The notes: a model not told the origin generated them from the letters alone. Positions 1-21,987 are shown, counted from the stretch's first letter. The stretch: DNA of 32,000 bases from Candidatus Saccharimonadota bacterium (GCA_965229705.1 OZ245922.1:30001-62000); one strand, 5' to 3'. Translations and numbers: made by a program.

Positions 1-338
1 TTATGAAGAAGGGTATTTGATGTTCCTGTAAATCAGAGTTTTGTAGAAATATATTTCCAAGTATTTGGAAAAAGCGTGATAATACCAAGCGAGATAACAA
101 TTCATCCTGAAAAAGTTTTCCAAAAACTTGGAGGAACATCTATGAGAATGGTACTCGCTTTTAAAAGAAGGGAGAAAATGATGATCGAGATACTCAGCGA
201 AGCAATAATCACTATGGGAATGCGTTTGTTGTTTCCGTCTTCGGCACTAGCTCAGAGGATAATTGGGAGGAGAGGAAGGACGCATGGAGCGAGAACGGTT
301 AGTACTCAGGAGAAAAAGGCAATAATGAGAAGCGTCAT
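1..338 (-). CDS. ccdA: CcdA/DsbD-family thiol-disulfide transporter (cytochrome c biogenesis transmembrane protein); 3' end runs off the window
   Basis: Minus-strand ATG at 338 with an in-frame TAA just upstream (348-350). Translation with TGA=Gly gives MTLLIIAFFSGVLTVLAPCVLPLLPIILGASAED..., hydrophobic and carrying the PCxxP motif typical of CcdA/DsbD. The + strand ORF 76-351 in the track is its antisense. Confidence 0.7.
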
Positions 339-422
339 AAAAGAGCATTAAAAAATATGACCATTATCATATATATCATACTTAAATGAAGCTTAAAATG
401 TGTATAGATCTCTAAAAACCAT

Positions 423-701
423 TTACACAAAACTATTTATACTCCCGACTGTTACTCTATCAAATCAAATGTTAAAATCAAAGGATTTAGTAATAGAATA
501 TTTTCAATCCTTAGCTACTTTCAAACTATTTATACTAAATGTATCTATCAAATTGACGATACTATCTTCGGTAAAAAAATAACTTGATTTTTGAGGCACA
601 TATAATTCTCCTCAAACTAAATGTCTATCCTTAATATGTTGTAATCTTTCATCAGATATTTTTAAACCTGTTTTAGCCACTTTAAAAGCAACTGCCTTCA
701 A
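423..701 (-). CDS. small hypothetical protein (92 aa), function unknown
   Basis: TTG start at 701 preceded by GGAGGTG with a 6 nt spacer; TAA stop at 423-425; 3 in-frame TGA. Translation is MKAVAFKVAKTGLKISDERLQHIKDRHLVGGELYVPQKSSYFFTEDSIVNLIDTF.... GTG at 710 is an alternative start. No family recognised. Confidence 0.4.
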
Positions 702-757
702 CCTAGCCACCTCCGGTAGTAGGTAGTATAATCGGGATTCAAAGTGAGAATTGATCT

Positions 758-1303
758 TTATACTTTCATAACATCAGCTTCTTTTGCTTTTGTTTTTTCT
801 TCTACTTTCTTGTTACTTTCATCAATGGCTTTTTGGAGATCAGCTTCATAAGATTTTGCTTCGTCTTCAGAGATTTCTTTCTCACTTTCAGCTCTTTTAA
901 TCGCTTTATGATAGTCTCATCTCACATTTCTCACAGAGACCTTGGCTTCTTCCCCAAATTTTTTTACAACTTTCGCCATATCTCGTCGTCTTTCCTCAGT
1001 AAGTTCAGGAACTTTTATCAGGACACTATCAGCCATAGTTTGTGGATTGAGCCCTGTTCCAGCATCGGTGATAGCCTTTGCGATAGGATGAATCAGGGTC
1101 TTATCCCATGGAGCGATAGAGAGCGTTTGAGGATCAAGGATATTGATACTGGCAGAGTTTTTTAGTGGTTGCACGCTTCCATACTGTTCTACCTGAATAT
1201 CCTCTACCAGTGCTGGTGTTGCGCGTCACATTTGCAACTTTGAAAATTCACTTTCAAGGTGAGAGAGAGCTTTCTTGAGGTCTCCTTCGAGATTATCTAA
1301 CAT
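758..1303 (-). CDS. frr: ribosome recycling factor
   Basis: 181 aa: MLDNLEGDLKKALSHLESEFSKLQM-G-RATPALVEDIQVEQYG...VSVRNVR-G-DYHKAIKRAE.... It aligns along its length with Frr. TGA at 1226-1228 sits on the conserved Gly of the xGRAxPxL motif. TAA stop at 758-760. Confidence 0.95.
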
Positions 1304-1387
1304 ATATATTGTTTTAAAAAATAAGTATTTTTTGAAGTATAGGGAGAATATTTTCTATTTCAAAATTAAATATTCCTGAAGAATATC

Positions 1388-1903
1388 TTATTTTTCTAAG
1401 AGAGATATCACTTCAGGGCGTAAATACTTTTCGATATTTTGTGTATCTCATTCCTCCAAGAGTTCTCGAACCTTTGTCCCTGATATGGGGAGATGACTAC
1501 GAGGAATTTCTACAATACTCAGTTCAAAAAAGAAGCTACTTTCAAACTCTTTGAGGACTTTTACCGCAGAATCGGTTGAGGTGTCTCCACAGTAGAGTGT
1601 GATATATTGTATGTTATCAGGGATATGTAAAAGAACTTCCTGAATCCAGTCGGTATCATCGGGAAAATCAGGAAGAGGAGATATAGATAGTTGTGTAAGA
1701 AACTTCTGAGAAATAAAAAAATCTTGTATCATTTCTTTTCTCTTCTCATAACTCCATGGATTTTCTATATTTTCTATATTGCTTGATCCGATAAGGATGA
1801 GTGTTACTGGATTTTCTTGTAGAGATTTTTGCACAAGGAGTTCGTGACCTATATGAAAAGGCTGAAATCGTCAGATGATAAGTCAGAGAGAGTTTTTGCG
1901 CAT
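1388..1903 (-). CDS. nucleotidyltransferase of the NadM/NMN adenylyltransferase type (cytidylyltransferase superfamily)
   Basis: 171 aa. The N-terminus MRKNSLGLIIGRFQPFHIGHELLVQKSL carries the GRFQPFHxGH signature, and both Gly of GLIIG are TGA. TAA stop at 1388-1390. Track ORF 1448-1834 is the central fragment. Confidence 0.75.
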
Positions 1904-1971
1904 ATAGTTTTACTTGCTCTTGTTTTCAGAGAGATGGATAAGAGGACTAAAAGAAGAGAGGATATATCAGT

Positions 1972-2904
1972 TTATAAGCTGTTAAAATAGTCAGTAAGGT
2001 CGGGGGCAATCTGTTTTTTGCGTGAGAGTCGTGCACCAAGAGATGCTTGGTTTTCATGAACATGACATCCAAAAACTTCTTCGAGTATTTTTGTATCTTT
2101 TCCTTCTAAGACAATGGTTGTATTTTCTTCTGCAAGGATATCTATGATAGAGAGCATAATAAACTCTAAACTTTGTTCTGTCTTGAGCTCTTCAAGTCCT
2201 CTTACAATCTCTTCTTTTCTTCCTAGGGCATATTCTGGGTTGGTGGTTTCGAGTGTTCCGATACCTATTTTATATGGTCCAAACTCGGAGTTTTTATAGT
2301 CATATTGTATGAGATCTTTTACCGGCATATCTCCCAGATCAGATTTTGCCTCAAACATGGGCATGGCAAATGCTTCAAGATCAGAAATACCAGCAATACT
2401 TTGGAGATCACTGGCAATAGCTTTGTCTTCAGCAGTGGTAGTAGGAGATTTCCATAGGAGCGAGTCTGACATGATACATGCGAGCATCATTGTTGCAACT
2501 TCTGGAGATATTTCAAACCCGACCTCTCGGTACATCTTATACAAAATAGAAGCGCTTGAACAGAGGGGTTCTACGCGAATATAGAGGGCAGTACTACTAT
2601 GAAAGTCCATTCTATGATGATCAACGAGCCATGTGACATTCAACTCTTTGAGGTTATCAGGAGCTTGCGAAGACTCGTTATGATCAACGAGACACACCTC
2701 TATCTCTGGGTTAAGTGAGCTCTGAATCTCTGGTGTTTCAAATCCATATTTTTCTATGAGGTAGGCAGTTTCTTTATTGATTTCTCACTGGATATATACG
2801 GTTGGAGTATATCATTTTTTTGTAAGAAAATCTTTCATGATTAGAGGAGCGATTACGCTATCTGTATCCGGATTTTTATGCCCTACGATAGATATTTGAG
2901 TCAT
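1972..2904 (-). CDS. ppaC: manganese-dependent inorganic pyrophosphatase (family II, DHH/DHHA2)
   Basis: 310 aa. MTQISIVGHKNPDTDSVIAPLIMKDF... (DHH motif I), then LVDHNE, LVDHHRM and the DHHA2-type C-terminus. Track ORF 1972-2697 extends upstream through two TGA=Gly codons to the ATG at 2904. Confidence 0.9.
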
Positions 2905-3094: not shown

Positions 3095-6000
3095 ATGAAA
3101 AGATTTTTGAGTCTTGGGTGTCTGATACTCATATTTTTCTCTCAAATGCAGTGGCTACAGGTCTATGCTGCACAACAATCTGAACTGAAAAATAGTAAAC
3201 AGCAGAGTACACAAACCCTCGAAGTATTAGATACTGCTATCGATCAGGCAGTAGAAAAACTCCAGAAAAATCTCACAAATGATCAGCAAACAGAGAGACT
3301 TGAAGAAAAGCATGAAGAAGTATCAGAATACCTTGAAGAAGTAGAACAAGAAATCCAAGATGCTACAAATACACAAGCCATCAAGGAAAAAGTCCAAGAG
3401 GCAAAAAAAGTCGTACTCCTCAAAGTTGTTTCTGGTGTTACTCAGTACGAAGATATAGAAGAAACAATACCACAAGAGGTAGCATCCTCACAGGAACAAA
3501 TAGAAGAGGCTATGGAAACTATTCAAGACTCACTTGAAACATCTTCATGAGACTACAGTATCATAGTACAAACGGAACTTCCTGTATCAAAGGTAAAAAA
3601 ACGCTTTCATAGCTTTGATACGAGTACCCGAGTATCGTTTATGTACGAGTCATGAGGACAACGAGTCTATGAAGTATTTTTAGAAAAAGATTCAATTTTT
3701 CGAAGAGAAATGCTCGAAGATATAGAAAAAGGAATTCTTCCAGAAAGCTTTATCGGAATACAGATAATCCTCCCAGAGGTGTACAGCCTCTTTTCTCAAA
3801 ATTCTTCCCTCCAATCGAAAAATACCTCCTCTCTCATCGAGGGAGAGGATATATCTCGTACATGGGGAATAGCAGAATACCAAACATATCATCACTTTTC
3901 AGAATCTTCTCCACAAAAAGTGACAGTTTGAGTCGTAGATACAGGAATAGATTATCTTCATCCTGATCTCAGGAATAATACTAATATCAGTAGAGGCCAA
4001 GACTTCGTGAATAATGATGATGATGCATATGATGACCAATGACATGGAACGCATGTAGCTGGCGTCATTGCTGCCAGTATCAACCAAGAGTGAATCATCT
4101 GAGTAAATCCCTATGCAGAACTTATCCCTCTCAAGATTTGTACCAATCGTGGTTTTTGCCCAAGTTACGCTGTACTCAGATCTCTCGAATACGCGACAGA
4201 AAATGGTATCGATATTCTTAATATGAGTCTGTGAGGAAGAGGAAATCCCAAAGATCATGCTATCTGTAATGCGATAGAGTCATATACCAAAAATGGATGA
4301 ATCGTTGTAGCTGCCTCAGGAAACGCCAATATCCCTGCAGAAAAATTTATTCCATGAGGGTGTTCGGAGTCAATAACAGTATGAGCCTATGACAGAGATA
4401 AGAAAAGAGCACCATTTTCAAACTATGGAAGTAAGGTAGATGTATCTGCTCCTTGAGTAGATATATACTCAACCTACCCAAAAAATACATGAAGCTATCG
4501 AAGTCTCTCAGGGACATCTATGGCAACGCCACATATCTCAGGTCTCGTCTCTCTGGCTCTTACGCAAGATAAGGATATAGGTACGAGAGATATGCGAAAA
4601 CTTCTACAAAAGCATAGTGTTCCTCTTGAAAATACTTCAGGGAAAAGTATAGGAGGAAGAGTCGATACCCTGTCTTTTCTTGAAGAGTTTCAGAAGGTAG
4701 TAGATGAAAATGAGACTATTCAAAATACCCCTCTTCCTGATCTGAGTGATCAGGATATCCTGCCAGACATCCCTGATCCCCAAACTCTCTTTCAAGAGGA
4801 AACCGAAGACTCAGGGTCCTCGCTGAGTGATGCAGAAATCATTTCAGAAACCACATATATTGATGAAGAAATATTTTTTATCCCAGAACAAGAACAGGCA
4901 GACGAACGTGTACGCGTTTCTAACCTTGAGCTTGAAGAGACAGATGGATCAGTGCCGCTTATCCAATCAATAGCACCATATACGATAGATCTCAATATTT
5001 TTTCAGAACACAGCGAAAACCAAATACAAAATAGTGAAAATCCAGAAGAAGAATTTTTTGAACTGGATGAGACAGGAGTTGTTGATGTCCAACTTGAGCA
5101 AAATAAGACGCTTACACCGTATTCATCGCAATCATATAATGCAGATGGAGAATTCATAGATCAAACACAAATCAACAGTACTGAAGATGCGGGAGAAACT
5201 GTTCCAAGTCTTCGTCTGGAAGGACCAATTGATTTGGATAATCTCCCTGCACTTCAGCCCTCTCTCGACAGTGAACAAGAAGAAGACAGTGAAGATGTCG
5301 AACAAGAACAAGATATGCAAGAAGAGTATGGAGAGGATCCCGTACAAGAGATCCAAGAGCTCTTCATAGATGGGGCTGAAAGTGGAGTGGATATAAGTAA
5401 CTTTCAAGAACAAGAGTTTACTCCTCTGCAACTCGAGCAATATCCAGAAGACTCAGAAACGCTTATATTTATAGATGAGGAAGGAAATACTATTGATACA
5501 AATCAACTTGAAGAAATTCCTCTTATAGAAGAAGTATTTGATTACAGCTACGATAGAGAAGTATTTCTTGATACTCATTCTGACTCTCTCCCTTTGGAAG
5601 AAGAGGGAAGCATGGTGGAAATAAATAGTGTATCTGATGAACAACTTCAAGAGCTGGTTATCACTGAGCATGATCCACATCTGCAAATACATCTTGAGGA
5701 TATACAGTGAGACCCACTTACAGGGTATGATGATATTGAGATACATAGCTCACCAAATCCTGACTCTCTCTGAGAGGAGAACAAGCATAGCGAGAATGAC
5801 GAAGTCGCAGCAGAGCAGGAGGAAGAAGATGGTATCATTCCTATTACTCCGATACTGGAACAGATTATTATTCCCGAGACTCAGGACGAACTCTTTGTAT
5901 GAGATGCACAAGATTCTGTAGAAATTAATAGTCTTATAGACGAAGAAGAGTGGCAAACTATAGAGATAGAAGAATATAGAGGAGAAGAGGTGCTCGAAGA

Positions 6001-9000
6001 AGAAATCAAGTCAGATACCCTCATCGAAGAAGAAGATCAGATAGAAGACAGTTTTCATCAAGAACTTACGCAAGAAGAGTATGAAGACATTATCAGTGGA
6101 AAGGCAATTATCTTCCCAACGATAGACCAGTTAGAAAATGAGATTCCAACACCAGAGGATTTATGGGAAGAAGATGAAGAGGGGATGGAGATACATAGTC
6201 TTGGTGATGAAGTTGAAGAATTTACACTTTGAGAATTTACAGAACTCTCAGAGGAAGAAATGGAAAACAGAGAATGAGCAGAAGATAGTGAGGAATCTTT
6301 TGGAATTCAAAATACATATTACTGTCACATCAACGCTGGAGAGACCTGTAGTTTTAGTATGTATAAACCATCGAGGTATCGTTTTCATAAAACAAACTCT
6401 CTGATTTCTGAGCATTACACTAGTCGTCATGTACTTACTATCAGAGGACTTCTCGAAGGAACATCTACCTATAAAATGTCTCGTTATGGAAAATATTACT
6501 ATACAATTTATGTTACTGTTACTGCTCCCAAGCCAGTAGTACCACCAAAAGATATATATGTTGATGTGGAGTATGGTAGGGGTCTATATGTGGATTTTGG
6601 GACAAAAACTAACTACTTATATGTAGACGGGAATACTCTTTGAAGGATATATGGAAGTGGTATGAATGTTTCAGGAGATACTCGAACTATGACGGTGTAC
6701 AGAAACTATACTCATGCCTATAATATTCATATAACATCAGTACCACAAGAACAAGAAATTTCTCTGATTGAATGACAGAGGTTTTATAAAAACATGTATC
6801 ATTTACAGGGTTTTACTCCAGTGATATGAGACGAAGATATTATTACATATAGTACAGGTTATCAGTCTTTGTATATACACGCAAAGACAGCTGGAAGCAC
6901 GCAGCTAAAATTGATAAATGAGTCTCTTTCGCAGCATGCTTATACCTTTAATGTTACTGTTACCCCAGCTCCACCACCACAAGAATATGATGTCACGATT
7001 GAAGAGTGAAGCAAACTCAAACTTTATTTTCCTGAACGTACTTATAGTATTGAAGAAACATATAATGATGGTGCGAGGGTATCGATAAAAAAGAGGAGTT
7101 CTTCACTTCGTATACAAGCCGACTTTCCATGAAATATTGAATATCTGACAAGAGATATAACAGGTGTACAGCAGTATCTTGTTCGTATACATATTACTAC
7201 GAAGCCTCCTGTTGTTATACAAAGTAGCGTACATGAGTGGCAGACGATTTCTCACAATCTTAATTACCCAACAAACAATGAATACTCTTATTCGTCAGAA
7301 GAACATGTGAAACTCTCAGTTGATAAGCATAGAGTATATATCACTTGAGAAAAGGCGGGGAATCTCGAGATATATGTAAAAAGAGAGGGGATTCATAGGT
7401 ACACAATACAGCTAGAGGTAAAGCCTTCACCAGCACCCCAAGAACATAGTATTCGCGTTTGAGAATGAGAACAGACGATTCTTCGTTTATGAGATACTCT
7501 TTCATATACTGTATCACATTTGCCTGAGTGACGTGGAAAATTGTCAGTATATACATGGCGTAATAAACTTTCACGACAGGCAAAGATCACGGGAACATTC
7601 CCGTGAAACAAAACGCTATTTCTTCGAGAATATCCGTCATGAATAGTGAGACATATACTCAATGTAGAAGTTGTTCCTAAACCACCAATTGTTCGAGAAG
7701 TAACGGTGAAGCAGGAGAAGTTGAAATCTCTAAATTATAAGTCTTATGATGCAGATTTTTCTCTTTCTGCTTCTTGATACATAAGTTTTTCAAAATCAGG
7801 GTCTCGTTATCAAAAAAAGAGCTATTATGTCAGGGGTCTGAAATGATGAGAAGTAGAACTTTATGTAAAAGAGCAGGGTATTCATAGGTATACTTATAAA
7901 ATTACGGTGATTCCAAAACCTGTGCCACAAGAGTATCATCTCAACTTTAGTTGGGCGTACGGACAAGCTAATATATCTTTCCCAGAATCGATTCGTAGAT
8001 ATAGGTTTTATTATCAAGGAAACACCGTTATGTATGATGATATACGAAAATATGATAAGAGTATAAGTATAGAGGTAGACAGAGTTTGAGAAGGAAAAAT
8101 CATCATCAGAGACAGAGATGACTACGATAGATATATCATACATGTAAAATCTGAACCTCACTATCGTGACTATACACTCTATACAACTGAAAGAACCTAT
8201 AACTTAGGAGTAAGTCTCAGAAATGTAAATACACATATAGTCAATAAATCAATAGCGCGACTCAACAAGTGATACCTAGAGTGACTCAAACCAGGAAAAA
8301 CAGAGCTTCATATTAGTAGTACGAGTAGAAAAAGATCATGAACAATAATAGCTATTTACCGAATACAAGTCCTGCCAAAACCAGTTCCAAAAGTCATTGA
8401 GTGTGAGACAAGCACCTATGAAACATGCTCACTTGAAGTTTCTAATGGTGGATATTATTATAACACAACTTTCCCGAATAACAGTTATGATATAACGGCA
8501 TCTAATACAGGCCTTCGTATTTCTTCACAGAGATCATGAGAATTTATCGCATATATGGAGTGAGAAAACACCAGCTATATTACGCATATATTTAAGGTGA
8601 CTTTTCATTCACGACCTCCGAAGGAATACGAGTGTCAACTTACTCGGTGATGAGACTGTCATCTTTGAAGTTTTCGTACCAATAATCGCCAACTTACATT
8701 TACAACAGACGATCCATCACTTTTTGAGATTAGATATGTGCGTGAGCGTCAATCTGCGACGACAACATGAAACAAAACATACAATGGCGAAGAATATAAA
8801 CAAATAGATGGAACATTCTCGTATAAAATTCGTTATACCCTGAGGGCAAAAGAGAATGGACAAACACAAATATATATCTACGACGATCAAGAACATCTTG
8901 CAACTATAGACCTCAATGTATACAAGATTCCTTCCATCGTTCTAGATACAACAAAAATAAGCACTAAACAAAGTGAAAAAGGCACAGTAAATATCCTCAA

Positions 9001-10795
9001 AGGATGATGAGACTACCAAAAGTACCAAGACTATGAAGACCTTGACTACTTCAACCCTGATACCAACGAACAAACAGAGGAGCAAAAGCAAGAACACTCC
9101 TACAGTGGTGATGTTACTATGCGTGAGATGACTCCATGACGTTATTATCCAAGTATACGCGACGCCTATGGACAGACAGTACAGATCACCTTTGTTGTCA
9201 AAGATACTACTCTCAAGATCTCGAACTACCGCCCTACCCTCAAGACCTGACAAACAAGCTATCTCGATATCCTTGAGAGTTATGGTACACCAAAAATAGA
9301 GATGAGCAGTGCAGACAAAGACAAACTCCAAGCACGCATCATCAAACAACAAGGATCAGAAGACCTACAAATCGAGCTTGCTGCTCAACAATCATGAACA
9401 GTAAACCTCCGAGTTACTGATCAAGAAGGGAATAGTAAGGTAGTACAACTAGTGATAGAAGGAGGAGATGTGAGTGAAGATACACAGGGAGAGGAGGAAG
9501 GGAGATCTTCATCTCAAAATCCTTGAGGAGAGAGTGATAGTGGTAATGGTGATGAGGAGAGTACAGAAGAGGAGAGTTGAAGTGCAATGAGTTTTCATGA
9601 TCTCCAGTACGGAAGAAATAATAGTGAAAATTGACTCTCAAGTCTGTATTTTGAAATACACTGAAAACAAGAGAATCTACAAGAAGTATGAATACAATAC
9701 AAAGATACAAGCTGAACATATGTAAGAGAAACATTAGAGAAAGAAGAAGACTGAATATATATACTCTGATTAGACAAAGAAATATGTATAAACTGTTACA
9801 ACGAATTTCAACCATACTTCATAGACACAAACAATACTACAACATACTATAATACCAATACATACCTCTCATTTGCAGATAATGGAATAAGAACTACAAA
9901 TACTAAAAACAAAGAAGAAGAAGACCTAGCAATAAGTTGAGTACAAGAATATGTAGAATCAACAAAGAACAAATTCTATAATATTAAAAAACAAATAAGA
10001 ACGTTTAAAGACGGTAATCAATGATACATAGATGGAAGTAAACAAGCAGTGCGTGATGCTATAGAAGATTTAAAAGAAACCCCTGAAGATATATTGAATT
10101 TGTTACAATGAAGTTGAAAGATACTATATGGGTATATCACCTGAGAAAGAACAGCAGAGGAAGATTGGAAAAAAGCGAAGGAATGATTATGAGCATTATA
10201 TAATCAAATAGAGGAAGTATATAATGAGTATGAGGAGTATAAAGAATATCTTACATCCTATAATATACAATGGATAGAATGATATGTATGAGTGAGTTCT
10301 AGTTTGATGTTTGTATGACCCGGAAAACTGAAATGAGCCAAGAGTAGTGAGAGGGTTGTGAAGAGGGTAAGGTCTACATGAAGGTCTTGATTTATAGCAA
10401 GTAAATTTAAGGATATAACTTGAGTTGATGACATAATAAAAGTAGCTCAGGATTTAGAAAAGGTCGATTGATTAGATAAAGTTAAATGATTAGAATGATG
10501 AGCAGTGAAGGTTTTAGGAGATAAGGAAGGAGTTGAAGGTGTAATGAAAAGTTTAGAAACTAAGGGGTGGAAGTGAGAAAAAAAACCATCGAATAAATGA
10601 AGTGTTTATAGGTATACATCTCCAGATTGAAAAGAATGAATAACTTTGAGAGATTTTCATAGTAGTGATACACAAGTGAGAGATGCTGGGTTTAAGCATG
10701 AAGTTACTATGGATTTGTTGAAGTGGAAAGATTGAAAACTACAAAAATTAAGATGAGAAGGGAGTGAGATAAAGTTTTTACTTCCTAATCAATAG
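3095..10795 (+). CDS. giant secreted multidomain protein (2566 aa): signal peptide, S8 subtilisin protease, acidic linker, tandem beta-rich modules, C-terminal toxin-like module
   Basis: I walked one frame (position mod 3 = 2) codon by codon from the ATG at 3095 to the TAG at 10793-10795 and found no TAA or TAG, and on the order of a hundred TGA. Track ORFs 3095, 3710, 4520, 5990, 6359 and 7907 all lie in this frame. The N-terminus MKRFLSLGCLILIFFSQMQWLQVYAA looks like a Sec signal peptide. Confidence 0.85.
3929..4640 (+). other. peptidase S8 (subtilisin) catalytic domain within the giant ORF
   Basis: Catalytic triad contexts are present: G-VVDTGIDYLHPDL (Asp), DDQ-G-HGTHVAGVIAA (His; TGA at 4040-4042 on the invariant Gly), NMSL-G-G, AASGNA and LSGTSMATPHISGL (Ser). 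Confidence 0.9.
4700..6300 (+). other. acidic (Asp/Glu-rich) low-complexity region of about 530 aa within the giant ORF
   Basis: Translation is dominated by E, D, Q, I, L and S runs, for example SLDSEQEEDSEDVEQEQDMQEEYGEDPVQE and EEDLWEEDEEGMEIHSLGDEVEE. No recognisable fold motifs. Confidence 0.7.
6310..9470 (+). repeat. about 11-12 tandem beta-rich modules (about 77 aa each, Ig-like by pattern) within the giant ORF
   Basis: Pro-rich inter-module linkers recur every 230-245 nt: TAPKPVVPPKD (about 6540), TPAPPPQEY (6975), TKPPVV (7205), KPSPAPQEH (7435), VPKPPIV (7680), IPKPVPQEY (7920), LPKPVPKV (8390), SRPPKEY (8620). Each follows an alternating hydrophobic strand such as YTIxVxV. Confidence 0.7.
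9480..10795 (+). other. C-terminal module of the giant ORF: acidic/Gly linker, helical pre-toxin-like region, putative toxin domain
   Basis: ...DGSKQAVRDAIEDLKETPEDILNLLQG...SSSLMFVGPGKLKGAKSSERVVK...KGSVYRYTSPDGKEGITLRDFHSSDTQVRDAGFKHEVTMDLLKWKDGKLQKLRGEGSEIKFLLPNQ*. The last part is duplicated downstream as orphan cassettes. No named toxin family recognised. Confidence 0.55.
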
Positions 10796-10799
10796 AATT

Positions 10800-11246
10800 A
10801 TGAAAAAAATAAAAGACATAAAAGATATATATTGAATAACAGAGTGATTTACAGATAAAGAATGAATAGAATATTTTTTATATGATTTATATGAAAATAA
10901 ATATTCAAAATGATTAAATGAATTTTGGTTGTGTAATATGCCGAAAGGAACATATAATAGAATATCAGAAGAACAACAACTAGACATTACCCTAGACTAT
11001 CTCTATCCTTTACTCAGAGATGGGAAATTGAAAATAAAAATATTATATCATGAATTAGAAAAAGATTGAGAAAATTTAAAAGAATATAAATTAGTAAAAT
11101 CAAAAGAATATACACAAGAAGAATCAAAGCAAGCTATAGAGGATATAAAGAGAGAATGGCTTTCTTTTGATGATACTAGAGAGAGAGAGAGTTTTGAAAT
11201 GCTGTGAGTATTATTTACTTTATACGAAAATGACTGGGATTGTTAA
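10800..11246 (+). CDS. immunity-like small protein 1 (148 aa), immediately downstream of the giant ORF
   Basis: ATG lies 5 nt after the giant ORF stop. I checked the frame codon by codon to the TAA at 11244-11246, with 6 TGA=Gly. Translation is MKKIKDIKDIYGITEGFTDKEGIEYFLYDLYENKYSKGLNEFWLCNMPKGTYNRISEEQQLDITLDYLYPLLRDGKLKIKILYHELEKDGENLKEY...ESFEMLGVLFTLYENDWDC*. The immunity role is inferred from position only. Confidence 0.7.
11178..11191 (+). repeat. (AG)7 dinucleotide tract inside immunity-like ORF 1
   Basis: The sequence act-agagagagagagag-tttt was read directly. The paralogous tract at 11839-11850 has (AG)6. Confidence 0.9.
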
Positions 11247-11416
11247 AAAAACGAAACTGAAAGCAATGAATAACCTTGAGAGATTTTCATAGTAGTGATA
11301 CACAAGTGAGAGATGCTGGGTTTAAGCATGAAGTTACTATGGATTTGTTGAAGATAAACAATAAGTGAGAATTTGGAAAGGTAAAAGAAATAAAATTTAT
11401 ATTACCTGAACAATAA
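11247..11416 (+). other. orphan toxin-tip cassette 2 (no start codon of its own)
   Basis: The frame (mod 2) is open from 11180 and encodes ...KKRNGKQGITLRDFHSSDTQVRDAGFKHEVTMDLLK-INNKGEFGKVKEIKFILPEQ*, with TAA at 11414-11416. The conserved part is about identical to 10636-10723 and the tail differs from the native one. Confidence 0.6.
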
Positions 11417-11424
11417 TATATTTT

Positions 11425-12084
11425 ATGGAAGATAATAACTTTAAAAAATTTTTAGAAAAAGAAAGAATCAAAGATATTTATGGTATTTGTGATTGATTTT
11501 CTATGGATGAGGAAAATGGTAAGATTGTAACTATTTATGATTTGTATTGGAATAAACAGTCGGTGTGACTAAATTATTTTATGAATAGTACTATAACTCA
11601 AGAGGAATGGGAGAAAATAAAAGATAATAGAGAACAACAACTAGACCTTACCCTAGACTATCTCTATCCTTTACTCAGAGATGGGAAATTGAAAATAAAA
11701 ATATTATATCATGAATTAGAAAAAGATTGAGAAAATTTAAAAGAATATAAATTAGTAAAATCAAAAGAATATACACAAGAAGAATCAAAGCAAGCTATAG
11801 AGGATATAAAGAGAGAATGGCTTTCTTTTGATGATACTAGAGAGAGAGAGTTTTGAAATGCTGTGAGTATTATTTACTTTATACGAAAATGACTGGGATT
11901 GTTAAAAAAACGAAACTGAAAGCAATGAATAACCTTGAGAGATTTTCATAGTAGTGATACACAAGTGAGAGATGCTGGGTTTAAGCATGAAGTTACTATG
12001 GATTTGTTGAAGTGGAAAGATTGAAAACTACAAAAATTAAGATGAGAAGGGAGTGAGATAAAGTTTTTACTTCCTAATCAATAG
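11425..12084 (+). CDS. immunity-like protein 2, fused in frame to orphan toxin-tip 3 through a 2-nt shorter AG tract (219 aa as it stands)
   Basis: I verified a continuous frame from the ATG at 11425 to the TAG at 12082-12084: MEDNNFKKFLEKERIKDIYGICDGFSMDEENGKIVTIYDLYWNKQSVGLNYFMNSTITQEEWEKIKDNREQQLDLTLDYLYPLLRDGKLK...DDTRERE-FGNAVSIIYFIRKGLGLLKKRNGKQGITLRDFHSS...KFLLPNQ*. With (AG)7 it would end ...ESFEMLGVLFTLYENDWDC* like ORF 1. Confidence 0.6.
11839..11850 (+). repeat. (AG)6 dinucleotide tract inside immunity-like ORF 2
   Basis: The sequence act-agagagagagag-tttt was read directly. It is one AG unit shorter than 11178-11191 in otherwise identical flanks. Confidence 0.9.
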
Positions 12085-12088
12085 AATT

Positions 12089-12601
12089 ATGAAAAAAATA
12101 AAAGACATAAAAGATATATATTGAATAACAGAGTGATTTACAGATAAAGAATGAATAGAATATTTTTTATATGATTTATATGAAAATAAATATTCAAAAT
12201 GATTAAATGAATTTTGGTTGTGTAATATGCCGAAAGGAACATATAATAGAATATCAGAAGAACAACAACTAGACATTACCCTAGACTATCTCTATCCTTT
12301 ACTCAGAGATGGGAAATTGAAAGTGAAAACTAAAAAACTTTTAAAAACTAAGAAAGATTTAAGAAAAGAATTACAGAACCCTCTTAATGATTGGTGGAGG
12401 CAATACTTTGAAAATTCCTTACAGGACTCTAATTGGGATTGAGCTTGGATTTATGATACAGAGTATACTAAAAAAGAGTCTCAAAAAGCAATAGAAGATA
12501 TTAAGAAAAAATGGCTTTCTATTAAAGATACTAGAGATAGGGAGAGTTTTGAGATGTCTTGAGTATTATTTACTTTATACGAAAATGACTGGGATCGTTA
12601 A
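12089..12601 (+). CDS. immunity-like small protein 3 (170 aa)
   Basis: The ATG lies 4 nt after the TAG at 12082-12084. The N-terminal half is identical to ORF 1 (offset 1289). The C-terminal half is a diverged paralogue: ...KVKTKKLLKTKKDLRKELQNPLNDWWRQYFENSLQDSNWDGAWIYDTEYTKKESQKAIEDIKKKWLSIKDTRDRESFEMSGVLFTLYENDWDR*. TAA at 12599-12601. Confidence 0.7.
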
Positions 12602-12714
12602 AAAAACGAGATTGAAAAGAATGAATAACCTTGAGAGATTTTCATAGTAGTGATACACAAGTGAGAGATGCTGGTTTTAAGCATGAAGTGGTGCATGAGC
12701 GAGAGAATTATTAA
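12602..12714 (+). other. orphan toxin-tip cassette 4 (short tail, no start codon, no following immunity ORF)
   Basis: Encodes ...KKRDGKEGITLRDFHSSDTQVRDAGFKHEV-VHERENY*, with TAA at 12712-12714. Homology to the other copies ends right after catgaagt. Confidence 0.5.
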
Positions 12715-12749
12715 ATACATCTCTTGAGAAATTATCAAAAGAGCTATGA

Positions 12750-13994
12750 ATGAAGATTGAAGACAACACCTGAGAAGTAACCATCAGAGGAAAAGAAGTA
12801 TGAAAACACTATCCAATTATACAAGACACATACAAACAAACACAAACCCTCAAGGTAGCAATAACAGATGTCACACTGAAACTCTCGAGCTATATACCGA
12901 AACTCAAAACAAATGAGGTATGATACATAGATATATTAGAGAGTTATGGAGTACCGAGAGTGTATATTCAAGAGAGTGATAAGAATAAAATAACAGGAGT
13001 TATTACAAGAGATAAAGAGACTCAAGATTTAAAACTTTGAGTGTATGTAAGGATGGCTGGAAGCTATACTCTCAAACTGGTAGATGATGAGGGGAATACA
13101 AGAGTATTGCAGGTAGAGGTGGAAGGGAGAGATGTGAGTGAGGAAAAGGAGGGAGAGCAGCAGGGGGAAGGAATTGATGAGAGTGAAAGTGATAAAGGAG
13201 AAAAATTAAGCTATGATATTGAATCAATATTTATAGAACTCTTTCAGGCAGCGTGACTAGAGTATGATCACATCGAGATTAACCATGGGGATCATGAAAA
13301 ACAAGAGAAAATAATGCTCAAAAAAGTGCATAACATGATACAAGCAAAGAGATGAAAAATTGCAGAGCTCAATTCTCTCAAATCAGCAGCAGAAATATTA
13401 AAATCAAAGTATATTGATAGAGATATCTCTGAAGACCATAAAGAACTCGTTCTGTGAATACTCGACTACATTTCTATTAAATGTACCTTAGCAATAAAAG
13501 ACCAATGAGTTTCAGATGGAGTGTCACAAGCAATAGAAGATTACATATATGACATAACAGAAACACTTGATCCCAGAGAATTTCCAGAACTTTTAAAGTG
13601 AATAACATTTTTAATACAACAGGTTTTAGAGTGAAATATACCTGATCAGATAGAAGATATATCAGAATGATATAAGGAGTTATACGAAATATTTACGAAT
13701 TTGAACGAGATACTTGATTGATTGAGTGACTACAAGAAGAGTTATTACTGATCATATATAGAAACAATAGTTGCAATGGAACTTATTCCATTTAAAGTAT
13801 GAAAGTTAAGCAAGTTGAAGAAGCAGTGAGCTTGAGATAGTAAGACTTTGAAGGAGATAAGGAATCGATCAGACCTTCTAAAAGTAGCTAAAAATAGTAT
13901 ACAAAAGTATGAACTTAAAGAAGTAAAAGAATTTGGTATAGTTCTGAAAAAGTGTGTAAAAATAGATATGAGGTATGTATGTAAATTATTGTAA
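12750..13994 (+). CDS. orphan paralogue of the giant protein C-terminus (last beta module, acidic linker, different helical pre-toxin region), 3' end replaced by the IS element
   Basis: Frame mod 0 checked codon by codon. MKIEDNTGEVTIRGKEVGKHYPIIQDTYKQTQTLKVAITDVTLKLSSYIPKLKTNEVGYIDILESYGVPRVY...VDDEGNTRVLQVEVEGRDVSEEKEGE... parallels residues encoded at about 9100-9500. ...IVAMELIPFKVGKLSKLKKQG... parallels ...LMFVGPGKLKGAKSS.... The last 17-19 codons (IVLKKCVKIDMRYVCKLL*) lie inside the IS inverted repeat. Confidence 0.65.
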
Positions 13995-15235
13995 TAAAAA
14001 TTTACAGAACAGGAATTCTTTTTTCTCAAAAGAAAGCTACGAGTTCCATTCTTAATGAATGAAAATCACGTACTTTTTTGAGAGATTTTTGTTTATTCTG
14101 TACTGCAAGAAATATAGATATTTCAGCAGATCTCTGAGTAAAGTATACTCTTCTTTTTCAAATATTAGATTTAATAAGTCCATTAAAATTCTCAATCACA
14201 TTCGTAGAATATATAAGCTTTCTGAGAGGATAAGAATATTTAAAATACCCTCCCCATACATCAATATTATAAAACCATTCCTGAAGCAAGATACTATATT
14301 TTTCCCATTTCTGCTTCATAGCCTCTAAAAACTTGAGAGCCTCCTCTTGAGAAACAGCGTTATACACTTTCTTAAACTCCATAAAAAATTCTGTTTTATC
14401 TTTGTATGAAATGGACTGGAGAAGGTTTCTGACTCTGTGCACGATACAGGGCTGAACTTGAGTGTTCGGAAAACAAGATTGTATTGCTTCTTGAAATCCG
14501 GCCAGTCCATCAACACAAGCTATGAGAATATCATCTACGCCTCGATTTTTTATACTATTTATAATTTCTTGCCATACAGCTGATGATTCTGGTTTTTGCA
14601 TCACCACAAAGTCTAAAATATCTTTTTCTCCGTATATATTTACTCAGATGATGAAATATACTGGCACACTTTTAATACAGCTTCTGCCACTATGACTCTC
14701 AACCTTCATCTTTATATAGGTAGCATCCAGATATACTATTGTGTAAAAATTAAGTAAGGTTCTTGACTTGAAACCCAGAAGTTCATCATATACGCTGATA
14801 TTTTTGAGAGCAAATCATTAGAAAATCCAAAACCATATACTTCTGTAAAATACTGTCTTATATCTTCAAAAGTATTTCATAATCGCATCAGACCAAGTAT
14901 CTGACTCCAAATGGTATCGAATATTTGTTCGAGTGTTTTTGCTTTTATTTCAGAAAAAAACACTGTGCCTTCTTCTTTTTTTCAACGGGTACGAGGTATT
15001 TCTAAATCCATACGACCAAAGTAGGTTTTAGGGCGTATCTTACGAGTTCCGTTCTTATACACATCTACTCGTGATACAAAATCCTCAAATTCTTCGTATA
15101 TAGCACTCTCTATTGTGCTTTTTAATCTTTGCAATATAGTTTCCATATCCTAAGGGATTAAAAAAATAAGGTACATATTTGCATACATACCTTATTTTTT
15201 TATCTCTTATTTTACACACTTTTTTGAAACAGTGC
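13936..15235 (-). mobile_element. IS256-family insertion sequence (about 1.3 kb)
   Basis: Terminal inverted repeats: 13936-13961 gtatagttctgaaaaagtgtgtaaaa against the reverse complement of 15210-15235 gcactgtttcaaaaaagtgtgtaaaa (20/26 match, inner 15 bp perfect). Subterminal aggtatgtatgYaaat is also shared. It encloses a mutator-type transposase. No direct target duplication is visible. Confidence 0.8.
14002..15146 (-). pseudogene. IS256-family (mutator-type) transposase, interrupted by a -1 frameshift
   Basis: N-terminal frame: METILQRLKSTIESAIYEEFEDFVSRVDVYKNGTRKIRPKTYFGRMDLEIPRTRGKKEEGTVF...GFSNDLLSK. C-terminal frame: NISVYDELLGFKSRTLLNFYTIVYLDATYIKMK...ILIACVDGLAGFQEAIQSCFPNTQVQPCIVHRVRN...STNVIENFNGLIKSNIGKRR...VL*. 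The length 1145 nt is not a multiple of 3. The frames must switch between 14739 and 14817, most simply at the A5 run (14801-14805). Confidence 0.8.
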
Positions 15236-16216
15236 CATTTTCTCTACTTGTTCTCTCACATTCTCATGATGCTTTTTATTTGAATACATATCTAAATACT
15301 CACTAACATTCACGCCTAATACCCCAGAGTATACTCTGGTATTTTTACCATCCTGAGATCTGTGAGCTTTTATTATTGGTTCTACTGGTACATAATCAAA
15401 ACCTTCTTTTTTCCAAGTATCTGTTGCTTTGTATGCATCCATCCAACTGATAAATGCACTGTTGGGAATTATTCTTAATATAACATTGTTTATGAAGTTT
15501 TTTCCTAAAAGGATTGTTTTTGTTCCTGTTTTAGGAAATTTTTTTCTGATAAATACATCCTCTCATTCATCTATACCTTTGTATAAAACAGGATTTCTTT
15601 CTTCAGCCTGTGACAATTGCTCTTTTTCAACTACTTCCACTACTTGCATAACTTCATTTTCAATCTCTTCCCGAACTTCTTCTGGCAAGTATTGAAGATT
15701 CCAGGCGATATTTGTCGCTGCTTCTTTCGGAGCTTTCTCTAGTAACAAGCGAGCGATTTTTATTTGGACTTCTTTTGGCAAGTATGGAAGATTTGAGGCG
15801 ATATTTGGCGCTGCTTCTATTGGAGCTTTTTCCAGTAACAAGTGAGCGATTTCTTTCCGGACTCCTTCTGGCAAGTATCTAAGATTTGAGGCGATATTTG
15901 GCGCTGCTTCTATTGGAGCTTTTTCCAGTAACAAGTGAGCGATTTTTATTTGGACTCTTTTTGGCAAGTATTGAAGATTCCAGGCGATATTTGTCGCTGC
16001 TTCTTTTGAATATCCATCCAAGATTTCTTGAGCTTTTTGATAATGATCACTAGGGACACGTAATAAGTCATCTATCTTTGATTGTATTTCAATTCTTATA
16101 GCATCGAAACTATATTGATCCCTTAATTGCTGTGCTCTTTTTTGAAGTACTTTATAGGTTAATTTTGGCTTATGTGGTAAGTCAAACATCTCGGGATATA
16201 CTACAGTTGTATGCAT
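15212..16216 (-). CDS. repeat protein: 4 x 31-aa HEAT-like repeats plus a kinase-N-lobe-like C-terminal region, 3' end truncated by the IS
   Basis: Track ORFs 15563-16216 and 15212-15442 join in frame through TGA=Gly. Repeats follow EAAxNIAxNLxYLPxxVxxxIAxLLLEKAPx. Then comes ...FPKTGTKTILLGKNFINNVILRIIP...EGFDYVPVEPII...RVYSGVLGVNVSEYL.... The last 8 codons (ALFQKSV*) lie inside the IS inverted repeat. Confidence 0.7.
15655..16005 (-). repeat. tandem 93-bp DNA repeats (about 3.7 copies) encoding the 31-aa repeats
   Basis: Near-identical units such as ggcgatatttggcgctgcttctattggagctttttccagtaacaagtgagcgattt recur at a 93-bp period. Confidence 0.85.
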
Positions 16217-16315: not shown

Positions 16316-16639
16316 ATGTATAAGGGTTATGAACAACGGAGGTTCATATCAGGTATGAAAGATATAAATGAGGTATCTCTTATAATGGATAAGAGAATTG
16401 GAAAAGATACTTTTCGAGTTATAGGTGATGTTATCAAAAAATTATCACATATGAATGGAAGTGAGATTAGTGAATATTCACATGGAGATACTCCATATCT
16501 TGCTACAAAAAATATAGGAGATATATTGAAAAGCGTCTTGTTTTTTTATAGAAGCCCTCAGTACGAATATGTAAAAGAAAATCATGATATTGAGAAAATA
16601 AAGAAAAATATGCCTCCTAAAAATTTTTTCAAAAACTAA
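16316..16639 (+). CDS. hypothetical protein (107 aa); C-terminal part resembles the end of a Panacea/DUF4065 (SocA-like) domain
   Basis: ATG with an in-frame TAG 5 codons upstream; TAA stop; no TGA. ...VIGDVIKKLSHMNGSEISEYSHGDTPYLATKNIGDIL... matches the pattern sG.eL...sH.e..PW by eye only. Confidence 0.45.
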   Translation: MYKGYEQRRFISGMKDINEVSLIMDKRIGKDTFRVIGDVIKKLSHMNGSEISEYSHGDTPYLATKNIGDILKSVLFFYRSPQYEYVKENHDIEKIKKNMPPKNFFKN

Positions 16640-20505: not shown

Positions 20506-20631
20506 AAAATAACTTTCTTGTAAATATACAGGTAATATATAAAATTCAGTATGAAAAGCAACGATTTTTTTTGAGAAATCGTGAATAATATATCAAGATG
20601 CTTTATCGGTTTTTGTAATATCTCTCTGCAT

Positions 20632-21987
20632 ATGAAAAAGACAAAAATAAAAATCTGAATTGACGAAGCAGGCAGAGGTCCATGGGCTGGGCCCGTAGTT
20701 GCCTGCGCTCTTGCATGGAATCCAAATAATATGCCAAAAAATGATATATTATTGTCAGTGAAAGACTCAAAAAAACTCAGTGAAAAAAAAAGAGAAGAGC
20801 TCTATAGCTGTCTTATAAATCTTTCTTGCCCTCAATCTTCTTTGCCTGAAGATGAGGCTTGTCCAAAACTATTTTTCTGAGTATGAGTCGTGGATAACTT
20901 TTTTATAGATGAGAGAAATATTCGTCAGGCAAATAAAGAGGCAATGAGAAGAGCTATTGTAGAGATTTACTCAAAGATTCCGAAAGAGTTTTCGGAGGTG
21001 TCAGTAGTGATTGATGGGAGAGATAATTATGAGTTTTCCGAGCTTACACAAAAACCTCTCTATATTATCTGATGAGATGGGAAAGTTTCGGAGATATCTG
21101 CAGCAAGTATTATTGCAAAAGTATTTCGTGATAAACTGATGTGTCAGTACGCAACACTATATCCTCATTTTGGTTTTGATCATCATGCTGGTTATGGAAC
21201 AAAAAAACACAAAGAAGTGCTAGAGTCTCAGGGAGTAGTAGGGATTCATCGAAAGAGCTATAAGCCAGTCAAAAAAGTCGTTGAAGCAAAAGAAAAGGTG
21301 CTCGTACATATATGCTGCTGACCTGATGCAACGGTTCCTCTCATGGATCTCAAAAAAGACTATGAAGTTATTGCTTATTGGTATGATCCAAATATTCAAC
21401 CAGTTTCTGAACACGAGAAGCGTTTTGACGCCTTTGTTCGAGTGTGTGAAATAGAGGGCGTGAAGTACATTCGATGAGAGTATGATGTAAAAAACTTTTT
21501 TCATAAAATTCGTGGTTTAGAACATACTCCAGAGAGAGGAGAGAAGTGTCGAGAGTGTTATGATATGCGACTTGAAAGGACAGCGTTACTTGCCCGTGAG
21601 ATGTGAATCACAAAATGGACGAGTAGTCTCAATAATTCTCCACATAAAGATATGGAAAAGATGTTTACTCTTGGAGAAAAATGGGAGACTGTTTCTACAA
21701 AAACGCAAACTATTAGTGATAATGAGCGTTGTCAGGCTAGTAAGATATTGGGTATCTCTGTTACACAGATGCTAGATCAAGCTCAGGATCGTGAGAAAAA
21801 TCAGACGGAAACATCTCTGAAAAAACATCTTGAATTTCTCAAGATTGCTTTTCGGAAAAGTGGGGGATTTCAAAGGAGTGTTGACTATACCAACGAGCAT
21901 AATATTTATAGGCAAAACTATTGTGGCTGCGTTTATAGTGACACATTCCCTTGAAGAGAGAAAAAGAAAGTGAAAAATAAGTTCTAA
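20632..21987 (+). CDS. rnhB: fusion protein: ribonuclease HII (N-terminal) plus epoxyqueuosine reductase QueH/DUF208 (C-terminal), 451 aa
   Basis: One frame checked codon by codon: [23 protein letters not shown] (TGA at 20656-20658), ...[23 protein letters not shown]...[31 protein letters not shown]...[18 protein letters not shown]...[17 protein letters not shown].... There is no TAA or TAG between the two halves. TAA at 21985-21987. Confidence 0.85.

Follow-up and report, generated by a model that had tools for sequence, protein, structure and literature searches.

The 32,000-nucleotide stretch of DNA analyzed here (GCA_965229705.1, OZ245922.1:30001-62000, deposited as Candidatus Saccharimonadota bacterium; hereafter the window) contains a locus that, judged from its sequence and from comparison with related loci, very probably encodes a Sec-exported polymorphic toxin-immunity system of a Patescibacteria (candidate phyla radiation, CPR) bacterium using genetic code 25. 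The main gene occupies positions 3095-10795 of the plus strand (stop codon counted) as a single frame of 2566 codons. Its product combines, in order, a predicted signal peptide, a subtilase (Peptidase S8) domain, an acidic spacer, a stalk of tandem beta-rich modules, a pre-toxin region and a C-terminal tip; the open reading frame (ORF) at 10800-11246 begins 4 nt past its stop. By the comparative criteria of Zhang et al. (2012, PMC3482391), assignment of the tip as a toxin domain and of ORF 10800-11246 as its immunity gene is supported. The features characteristic of a polymorphic toxin were found together at this locus: 1) an N-terminal export signal, 2) central repeats, 3) an exchanged C-terminus, 4) a downstream immunity gene, and 5) orphan cassettes. 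A first-pass annotation, made from the sequence alone, had proposed an exported polymorphic toxin with a stalk and an exchangeable tip, and this proposal is now supported by the occurrence of the tip on a carrier with RHS and PT-TG domains, by the presence of barnase and EndoU domains in the same slot of related proteins, and by silent cassettes downstream.

To collect relatives of the C-terminal region, its tryptophan-corrupted translation (see below) was searched exhaustively with HMMER against 1.84 billion representative proteins, and 13 relatives were found. Some of them contain the same pre-toxin region followed by a different tip. In P0006, this tip is a barnase/RNase Sa-type Ribonuclease (PF00545, E=1.9e-14 after the glycines were restored), and a Barstar gene is located immediately downstream on the contig. 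In an orphan-like cassette at 835-1748 of a code-25-type contig (L004, Logan ERR13868556_146926), a barnase-type RNase tip is preceded by a fragment of a stalk module and by the same helical pre-toxin region, and a Barstar gene follows the cassette. The tip of P0003, behind the same pre-toxin region, is weakly Ntox21-like (E=6.8e-5, under the cut-off), and that of P0007 has EF-hand_3 as its sole Pfam match, again under the cut-off. A related genome (OZ245768.1, a chromosome of 1.49 Mb; L001/L002) contains an ortholog of the window gene, and 3' of this ortholog lie at least eight immunity-like genes with remnants of the toxin 3' end between them, and then two orphans (652 and 410 aa), which match both PT-TG (E=6.9e-9, 36 bits against a cut-off of 23.5) and EndoU_bacteria (E=9.3e-14) and share the stalk end of the window protein. 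The PT-TG and EndoU orphan cassettes, at 11285-14130 and 16903-19022 of L001, are near-identical, and each is followed by the same 293-aa ORF, which has no Pfam match and presumably encodes the EndoU immunity protein. Barnase-barstar and EndoU cassettes in related code-25 contigs take the same slot after the same pre-toxin region, whereas the window tip is unrelated to them in sequence.

Conversely, the same tip was found on four unrelated carriers. In addition to the S8-stalk protein, these are P0015, with a signal peptide, a Peptidase_C39 domain (E=9.8e-15), a coiled coil and hydrophobic segments before the tip; P0010, which is 871 aa long and cut off at the contig end; and a 1432-aa RHS/TEN_YD-shell and PT-TG protein (L006) ending in the tip (blastp 6e-8). 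The last three are all encoded on standard-code contigs. A homolog of ORF 10800-11246 directly follows the tip at the window, L001, L003, L005 and L006: two in tandem behind P0015 (L003; blastp 2.8e-13, 37% identity over 127 aa), one behind P0010 (L005; blastp 5.8e-10), and, in L006, one homolog, then an orphan tip (P0014), then a second homolog. The first-pass annotation had named this ORF as an immunity candidate, and the comparison speaks for it on all carriers. Members of the immunity family share the motifs YL..LL..G.LK, I..I...W and a C-terminal V.(F)TL(P/Y)EN across carriers, and the family has no match in Pfam or the PDB. The product of ORF 10800-11246 has no signal peptide and, since it also lacks a hydrophobic segment (KD19 maximum 0.21), is predicted to be cytoplasmic. 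Further searches enlarged the family little. When the C-terminal 402 aa or aa 1071-2566 served as query, word-indexed protein searches gave no more than the window protein's own mistranslated copy and one fusion ORF; a profile search added only fragments; a scan of 185,579 species genomes gave one related locus and chromosome; and two scans of Joint Genome Institute (JGI) metagenomes with the patterns used gave no matches.

The ortholog in the related genome is a protein of 2700 aa with its parts in the same order, and identity between the two proteins varies along their length. Per 100 residues, it is 0.27-0.29 at the N-terminus, 0.56-0.59 in the S8 domain, 0.13-0.33 in the spacer and stalk, and 0.83-0.99 over aa 2201-2500; the last 66 residues are identical at 0.77. 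Synonymous divergence (dS) is 0.12-0.30 in the C-terminal unit, whereas that of the carrier is saturated (2.66 in the stalk and not computable in the S8 domain). Because dS is low in the cassette and saturated in the carrier, the C-terminal unit was exchanged long after divergence of the carriers. By the same comparison, the C-terminal unit is under strong purifying selection, with a ratio of nonsynonymous to synonymous divergence (dN/dS) of 0.049 for the tip. The earlier description of the C-terminal domain as polymorphic thus holds for replacement of whole cassettes and for a 14-aa hairpin tail, but not for the rest of the domain, aa 2401-2500 being 99% identical in the two genomes. The genes flanking the ortholog show no synteny with the window.

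Downstream of the full-length gene, the window contains tandem units of 630-700 nt, in each of which the final ~170 nt of the toxin gene precede an immunity-like gene, and the DNA repeats are 99-100% identical. All 13 toxin 3'-end copies in the two genomes share the motifs GITLRDFHSSD..Q....AG..HEVT.DLLK and E(I/V)KF(L/I)LP. Between these motifs lie four alternative tails (A-D) of about 14 variable residues, which in the tip model described below make up the C-terminal hairpin's turn and its distal part. Each tail type was always found paired with one N-terminal type of the immunity gene, at 11 of 11 junctions in the two genomes (4/4 for type A, 2/2 for type B, 3/3 for type C and 2/2 for type D). 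The full-length gene ends in tail A in the window and in tail B in the related genome, and the matching immunity type comes next in each. The immunity genes themselves are mosaics of three parts, in which an N-part (types A-D) is followed by a conserved hinge and this by a middle that is either short or long, and all eight combinations of N-part and middle are present among the 11 copies. In every immunity-like gene, the reading frame past a DTRER motif is set by an (AG)n tract close to the 3' end. With n=7, or with an interrupted tract of 14 nt, the frame leads to the conserved C-terminus, as in both genes that follow full-length toxins and in 12089-12601. With n=6, the gene is read on into the toxin remnant that comes next, which accounts for the fusions in ORF 11365-12084 and in P0001, and with n=5 the third frame is read, as in six copies of L001. 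The (AG)n tracts may act as a slipped-strand switch or may be just a mutational hotspot. We infer that the hairpin end and the immunity N-part that matches it can be exchanged as one by recombination via the conserved flanks. Whether the array amounts to a device for sub-domain diversification, in which the hairpin end and the immunity N-part would be swapped while the catalytic domain, of a fold without solved relative, is kept and (AG)n gates the C-terminus of the immunity protein, we regard as doubtful on present evidence and propose tentatively.

One silent unit differs from these. The first 150 residues of the orphan at 12750-13994 match aa 2004-2150 of the window protein (39% identity, E=2e-33); beyond this stretch, its helical pre-toxin region and its tip are both different. 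The last ~22 codons of its ORF are supplied by an insertion sequence (IS), and its tip is therefore truncated. The transposase of this IS is split into two minus-strand ORFs (14736-15146 and 14002-14709).

What kind of domain is the tip? The first-pass annotation described a helical region followed by about 160 aa that matched no named toxin family, and both parts of this description were confirmed: VGPGKLKG is located at aa 2407-2414, with 152 aa remaining to the C-terminus, and Pfam, NCBIfam, PADLOC, PHROGs and PDB searches assigned no family. NCBIfam, PADLOC and PHROGs likewise gave no match for the immunity protein and the pre-toxin region, and PDB searches by sequence and profile with the C-terminal region, the tip family, the stalk modules and the immunity family had no match with an E-value under 0.27. 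The sole Pfam signal for the tip, DUF7028 (PF22970), was not adopted; four of nine tips match it (best E 2.1e-5), over profile positions 34-74 of 83 only, and the best score is 24.8 bits against a gathering threshold of 27. Leads to HicA and winged-helix proteins were also sub-threshold and were not adopted. The invariant residues of the tip family are a Tyr and a Ser (Y.SPDG), the second Ser of SSS/HSS, a Gly, a Thr and E-x-K-F, and seven of eight sequences have an Arg. The FHSSD tetrad had been compared with the HxxD signature of Ntox15/Tde DNases and placed in an invariant block at 10652-10666. Its position is corrected here to 10655-10669, and the comparison fails because neither its His nor its Asp is conserved: relatives have Ser or Gly at the position of the His and Thr, Ala or Glu at that of the Asp, and half of the tip sequences have Pro or Val in place of a second His (KHEV). 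There is no Pfam Ntox15 match, and the DNase lead was rejected. Structure prediction and structural comparison, which had been suggested for the C-terminal region, were carried out on the correctly translated tip of P0015 with an alignment of eight sequences. The AlphaFold2 model was confident (predicted local distance difference test score, pLDDT, 89.1; predicted template-modelling score, pTM, 0.83) and has the element order alpha-beta-alpha-beta-beta-beta-alpha followed by a long two-stranded hairpin. A Foldseek comparison of the model with BFVD found no neighbor (best template-modelling score, TM, 0.36). On the basis of this model, the tip would be a new toxin fold without a solved relative.

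These features suggest how such a system might operate. The protein would leave the cell via Sec, and the stalk would display the C-terminal unit away from the producer. The built-in subtilase may mature or release the C-terminal unit; subtilisin is listed with the proteases that process Sec-exported polymorphic toxins (PMC3482391), and N-terminal S8 or C39 domains have been proposed to cleave giant exported proteins (bioRxiv 10.1101/2023.11.21.568195). The hydrophobic, Gly-rich segment of the pre-toxin region could aid entry into the target cell, where the tip would act in the cytoplasm. A nucleic acid, possibly RNA, is a guess at its target, made because the identified tips in the slot are RNases and the immunity protein is predicted to be cytoplasmic; similar reasoning has been used elsewhere (PMC13483458). 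In the producer, the product of ORF 10800-11246 would bind and neutralize the tip, probably at the protruding C-terminal hairpin. Silent units, consisting of the hairpin tail and the immunity N-part, could recombine through their conserved flanks so that specificity and immunity swap together, and they may additionally serve as a stock of extra immunity genes.

Several observations weigh against this reading of the locus. The subtilase is ~1900 residues away from the tip, unlike those releasing peptidases that adjoin the toxin domain, and it might therefore instead digest proteins on the target surface. The tip matches no named toxin family in Pfam, and the window protein has no match to Pfam PT-TG (PF14449) at E<0.1. 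Foldseek found no PDB neighbor of the tip model (best E 0.086, TM 0.30), and the model itself was built on the tip of P0015, which is ~30% identical to that of the window, from eight sequences only. In the array, 8 of the 11 immunity copies lack the invariant C-terminus, part of the silent array may be decaying, and the linkage of tail and immunity types could partly reflect adjacency inside a duplicated block.

The last points lead to an alternative that keeps the same toxin-immunity pair and takes the array to be a decaying tandem duplication, with pseudogenes, accidental (AG)n tracts and no switching. We doubt this explanation while taking it seriously. The incomplete immunity copies are what it would predict, as are the truncated remnant, the orphan cut by an IS and the fragments of other cassettes that have become fused. 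Decay alone does not readily fit the full set of N-part and middle combinations, nor the finding that the two genomes, between whose carriers dS is saturated, have kept the same four types of tail and N-part; these two observations point to continuing recombination and retention. In addition, the expressed tails differ between the genomes, and each is accompanied by the matching immunity type.

A second alternative concerns the target. The weapon might be directed at a host or prey bacterium rather than at competing kin, with immunity serving only for self-protection during synthesis. Code-25 lineages include epibiotic predators (PMC8080830), and the protein has a protease and a very long stalk, features that would suit such a use, but alternative immunity genes arrayed with their matching toxin variants fit mainly competition among kin, in which relatives differ in their alleles (PMC3482391), and no target is identifiable from the sequence. 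We consider a host or prey target rather unlikely.

Much less probable is a surface adhesin or protease that is not a toxin at all, in which the hairpin would be a receptor-binding loop and the small downstream proteins its chaperones or partners. Such a function would agree with a new tip fold that has no toxin homology, with variation concentrated at the exposed hairpin end, as in receptor-binding proteins, and with the attachment role attributed to giant surface proteins of code-25 predators (PMC8080830). It leaves unexplained why the same slot in relatives contains barnase with barstar, EndoU and an Ntox21-like tip, and why the tip also ends an RHS and PT-TG toxin. A cytoplasmic partner, moreover, could not serve as chaperone to a binding loop that lies outside the cell once exported, and orphan cassettes and arrays of partner genes are hallmarks of toxin-immunity loci. 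An adhesin is accordingly judged very unlikely, and the toxin-immunity assignment is retained.

That the long ORF is an artefact of joined pieces or of a wrong genetic code, an assembly chimera or pseudogene, is negligible as an explanation even for a metagenome-derived source and a repeat-rich locus with an IS: mis-assembly, named in the first-pass annotation as an outcome that would overturn it, is excluded because the orthologous 2700-aa gene has the same architecture end to end in an independent 1.49-Mb chromosome, and the cassette is under purifying selection with its TGA codons conserved and with TGA at invariant glycines of housekeeping genes. The first-pass annotation had read the gene as one uninterrupted table-25 ORF, and so it proved to be. 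The frame contains 79 TGA codons, each of which would interrupt it under table 11, and no TAA or TAG; an equally long frame free of TAA and TAG would arise by chance with a probability of ~1e-64 (own arithmetic from the base composition of the window: A 0.34, T 0.31, G 0.19). In the source organism TGA encodes glycine, not tryptophan, as is shown by its presence at invariant glycines of thioredoxin reductase (GSgSAG, VggGN), the Gly-Gly of aldehyde dehydrogenase (FggVKKSG) and conserved glycines of the S8 domain (gHGTH, SLgG, APgV). In the alignment of the orthologous cassettes, TGA stands opposite TGA 24 times and opposite GGA twice. According to literature cited in PMC8080830, code 25 is known from Gracilibacteria/Absconditabacteria-type Patescibacteria. 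The public database copy of the window protein (P0002) is the same gene on a 1.0-Mb contig, differs at 79 positions, all of them Gly to Trp, and begins at Met18, so that the signal peptide is missing; P0001, encoded in L001, was likewise translated with TGA as Trp in the public protein collection. Such mistranslation blocks homology searches and spoils structure prediction, as seen in a single-sequence AlphaFold run on the Trp-corrupted window tip (pLDDT 44.8, unusable). The rarity of the family in public data is partly an artefact of the mistranslation of code-25 genomes.

Table 1. Features of the toxin-immunity locus; positions are counted from the first letter of the window.
Feature	Position	Residues	Strand	Remarks
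Predicted Sec-type signal peptide (MKRFLSLGCLILIFFSQMQWLQVYA, followed by A)	3095..3169	1-25	+	Signal-peptide-like; KD19 1.52; VYA/A site; equivalent N-terminus in the ortholog
Charged, helix-rich N-terminal region	3170..3916		+	No Pfam match
Peptidase S8 (subtilase) domain	3917..4618	275-508	+	Pfam E=8.6e-52
Acidic spacer	4712..6304	~540-1070	+	23-38% D/E, Lys/Arg almost absent
Tandem beta-rich modules	6305..9475	1071-2127	+	About 13 modules of 73-105 aa, Pro-rich linkers
Acidic Gly/Ser-rich linker	9476..9589	2128-2165	+	Constant region stops and exchangeable C-terminal unit starts
Beta-rich pre-toxin domain with CxxC (ICINC)	9590..9919	2166-2275	+	Common to relatives with other tips
Helical pre-toxin region	9920..10336	2276-2414	+	Hydrophobic Gly-rich end ...VGVSSSLMFVGPGKLKG
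Putative toxin-tip domain, new family	10397..10792	~2435-2566	+	~130 aa; from family alignment
Variable tail, type A (WKDGKLQKLRGEGS)	10724..10765		+	Far end of long C-terminal beta hairpin
Immunity-like gene, type A N-part, short middle	10800..11246		+	148 aa; complete conserved C-terminus
(AG)7 tract	11178..11191		+	Holds immunity gene in full-length frame
Silent toxin 3' end, type D tail (INNKGEFGKVKE)	11255..11416		+	
Immunity-like gene, type D N-part	11425..12084		+	(AG)6 at 11839-11850 shifts frame
Silent toxin 3' end, type A tail	11914-12084		+	Entered by frame of type D immunity-like gene
Immunity-like gene, type A N-part, long middle	12089..12601		+	Interrupted AG tract (12533-12546) keeps frame
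Truncated silent toxin 3' end	12610..12714		+	Stops after ...FKHEV
83-nt scar	12681..12763		+	90-92% identical to post-PT-TG segment of the related genome's EndoU orphans
Orphan C-terminal cassette	12750..13994		+	No signal peptide; last two stalk modules and linker, other pre-toxin region, other tip
IS256/Mutator-type element	13928..15243		-	Imperfect 42-nt inverted repeats 13928-13969 and 15202-15243

The N-terminal half of the protein agrees largely with its first description (Table 1). The predicted Sec-type signal peptide is supported by its hydrophobicity and by its retention in the ortholog, and the region that follows it possibly holds the propeptide of the subtilase. The subtilase scores 176.7 bits against a Pfam cut-off of 21.8, and the complete triad reported earlier was found intact and in order, with Asp in VVDTG, His in HGTH and Ser in GTSMA, together with the oxyanion Asn (SGN). 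The top NCBIfam score of this domain is to TIGR03921, the mycosin model of type VII secretion systems (T7SS), but identity as a mycosin was rejected because the equivalog cut-off was not reached (156.2 against 278.75 bits). The 530-aa acidic segment is D/E-rich as described but is not featureless low complexity: it contains four degenerate repeats, each 70-100 aa long, that share the core ELF(I/V)DGAExG-VEIN(S/N), or ELF/YIDGAExG-(V/L/I)EIN(S/N) when the ortholog is included, and the spacer of the ortholog (L002, aa ~590-1190) has six such repeats. In shuffled sequence this pattern gave 0.01-0.03 matches, the pattern having been defined after looking.

Tandem beta modules with linkers are likewise present, although their number is about 13 rather than the 11-12 counted earlier. 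They were divided at the linkers by hand and, when aligned, show a common pattern in which one Gly is invariant; a BLAST self-comparison of the stalk found no repeats. The profile search that had been advised for single modules was run and gave only sub-threshold matches, mostly to beta-sandwich and immunoglobulin (Ig)-like families (T2SS-T3SS_pil_N, HL_N-beta, Ig_TMEM132 and Big_2). Since no Pfam Big threshold was reached and no module has a PDB sequence match, the stalk is only presumed to be Ig-like.

How does the locus compare with known systems? Sec-dependent polymorphic toxins with subtilisin are a known kind (PMC3482391, Table 1; e.g., Ntox32 with Peptidase S8 and RHS), and the window protein shares with them the signal peptide, the S8 domain in cis, the central repeats, the exchangeable C-terminal toxin and the downstream immunity gene. 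Unlike them, it has ~75-aa beta modules and acidic repeats rather than RHS, a subtilase located far toward the N-terminus, code 25, and tip and immunity families not represented in Pfam, NCBIfam or the PDB. PT-TG toxins that contain bacterial Ig-like domains in tandem (PMC13483458, 2026, groups 30 and 31) are alike in the order of stalk, pre-toxin region and variable toxin, whereas the window protein has no PT-TG match and stalk modules that fall under the Pfam Big thresholds; S8 and Patescibacteria are not mentioned in that study. A Rhs-type toxin has been noted in a Saccharibacterium (PMC6031116), and literature searches found nothing on such toxin loci in code-25 lineages. Among the other secretion routes considered, no T7SS markers and none of the type V (T5SS) or type VI (T6SS) secretion systems were found in the window, and Pfam scans of the protein and its neighbors gave no CdiA/CdiB features (two-partner secretion (TPS) domain, filamentous hemagglutinin (FHA) repeats, VENN/PT-VENN or CdiB).

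In Rhs/WapA orphan cassettes, CdiA-CT/CdiI arrays and Neisseria MafB loci, silent C-terminal cassettes and immunity genes lie downstream of the expressed gene, and a homologous stretch permits recombination. The window resembles these systems in having downstream silent cassettes with immunity genes, including one classical orphan (12750-13994). It differs in that most of its silent units comprise the last ~55 codons of the toxin and an immunity gene, so that sub-domain rather than whole-domain swapping would result. Processing of very long, filamentous exported proteins by subtilases at the cell surface is also familiar, in that the subtilisin autotransporter SphB1 matures FhaB and mycosins cleave ESX substrates. 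The protease of the window protein is instead fused in cis, and a processing role is suggested for it by analogy. Relative to the libraries searched, the tip family, the immunity family, the carrier with S8 domain, acidic repeats and beta modules, and the silent units of hairpin tail plus immunity gene are new.

To our knowledge, almost nothing is known about attack or competition by code-25 Patescibacteria, that is, epibionts and predators of the Gracilibacteria/Absconditabacteria type. The locus offers a concrete and testable candidate weapon, an exported protease-stalk-toxin with its cognate antidote, and the tip and immunity families occur in standard-code bacteria as well, on RHS and C39 carriers. 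Cassettes in which hairpin tail and immunity gene are linked would provide a compact natural system for studying the evolution of toxin-immunity specificity. The locus is also a warning that public translations with TGA as Trp can hide code-25 systems from homology searches and corrupt structure prediction.

Some minor observations were made in the two genomes. Promoter and terminator scans of the window gave results at or below chance, and tRNA and Rfam scans gave no matches. A Y1 transposase gene is located at 19555-19992 of L001. In the window, a 95-aa ORF on the minus strand (423-710), just downstream of the gene for ribosome recycling factor, has a weak Ntox50 match (E=0.058) and a QHIKDRH motif and shows no resemblance to the tip of P0007. 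Next to the IS, a 334-aa minus-strand ORF (15212-16216), whose 3' end overlaps the right inverted repeat, contains four tandem repeats of ~33 aa (LLLEKAP.EAAPNIASNL.YLP..V..EIA) and a C-terminal domain, and has no Pfam or PADLOC match. A 107-aa plus-strand ORF (16316-16639) has a sub-threshold match to the SocA/Panacea antitoxin (E=2.5e-4, 22.4 against 25.7 bits). Finally, a 478-aa plus-strand ORF (20551-21987) combines Ribonuclease HII (E=9e-32) with epoxyqueuosine reductase QueH (E=9.3e-52) and looks like a gene fusion.

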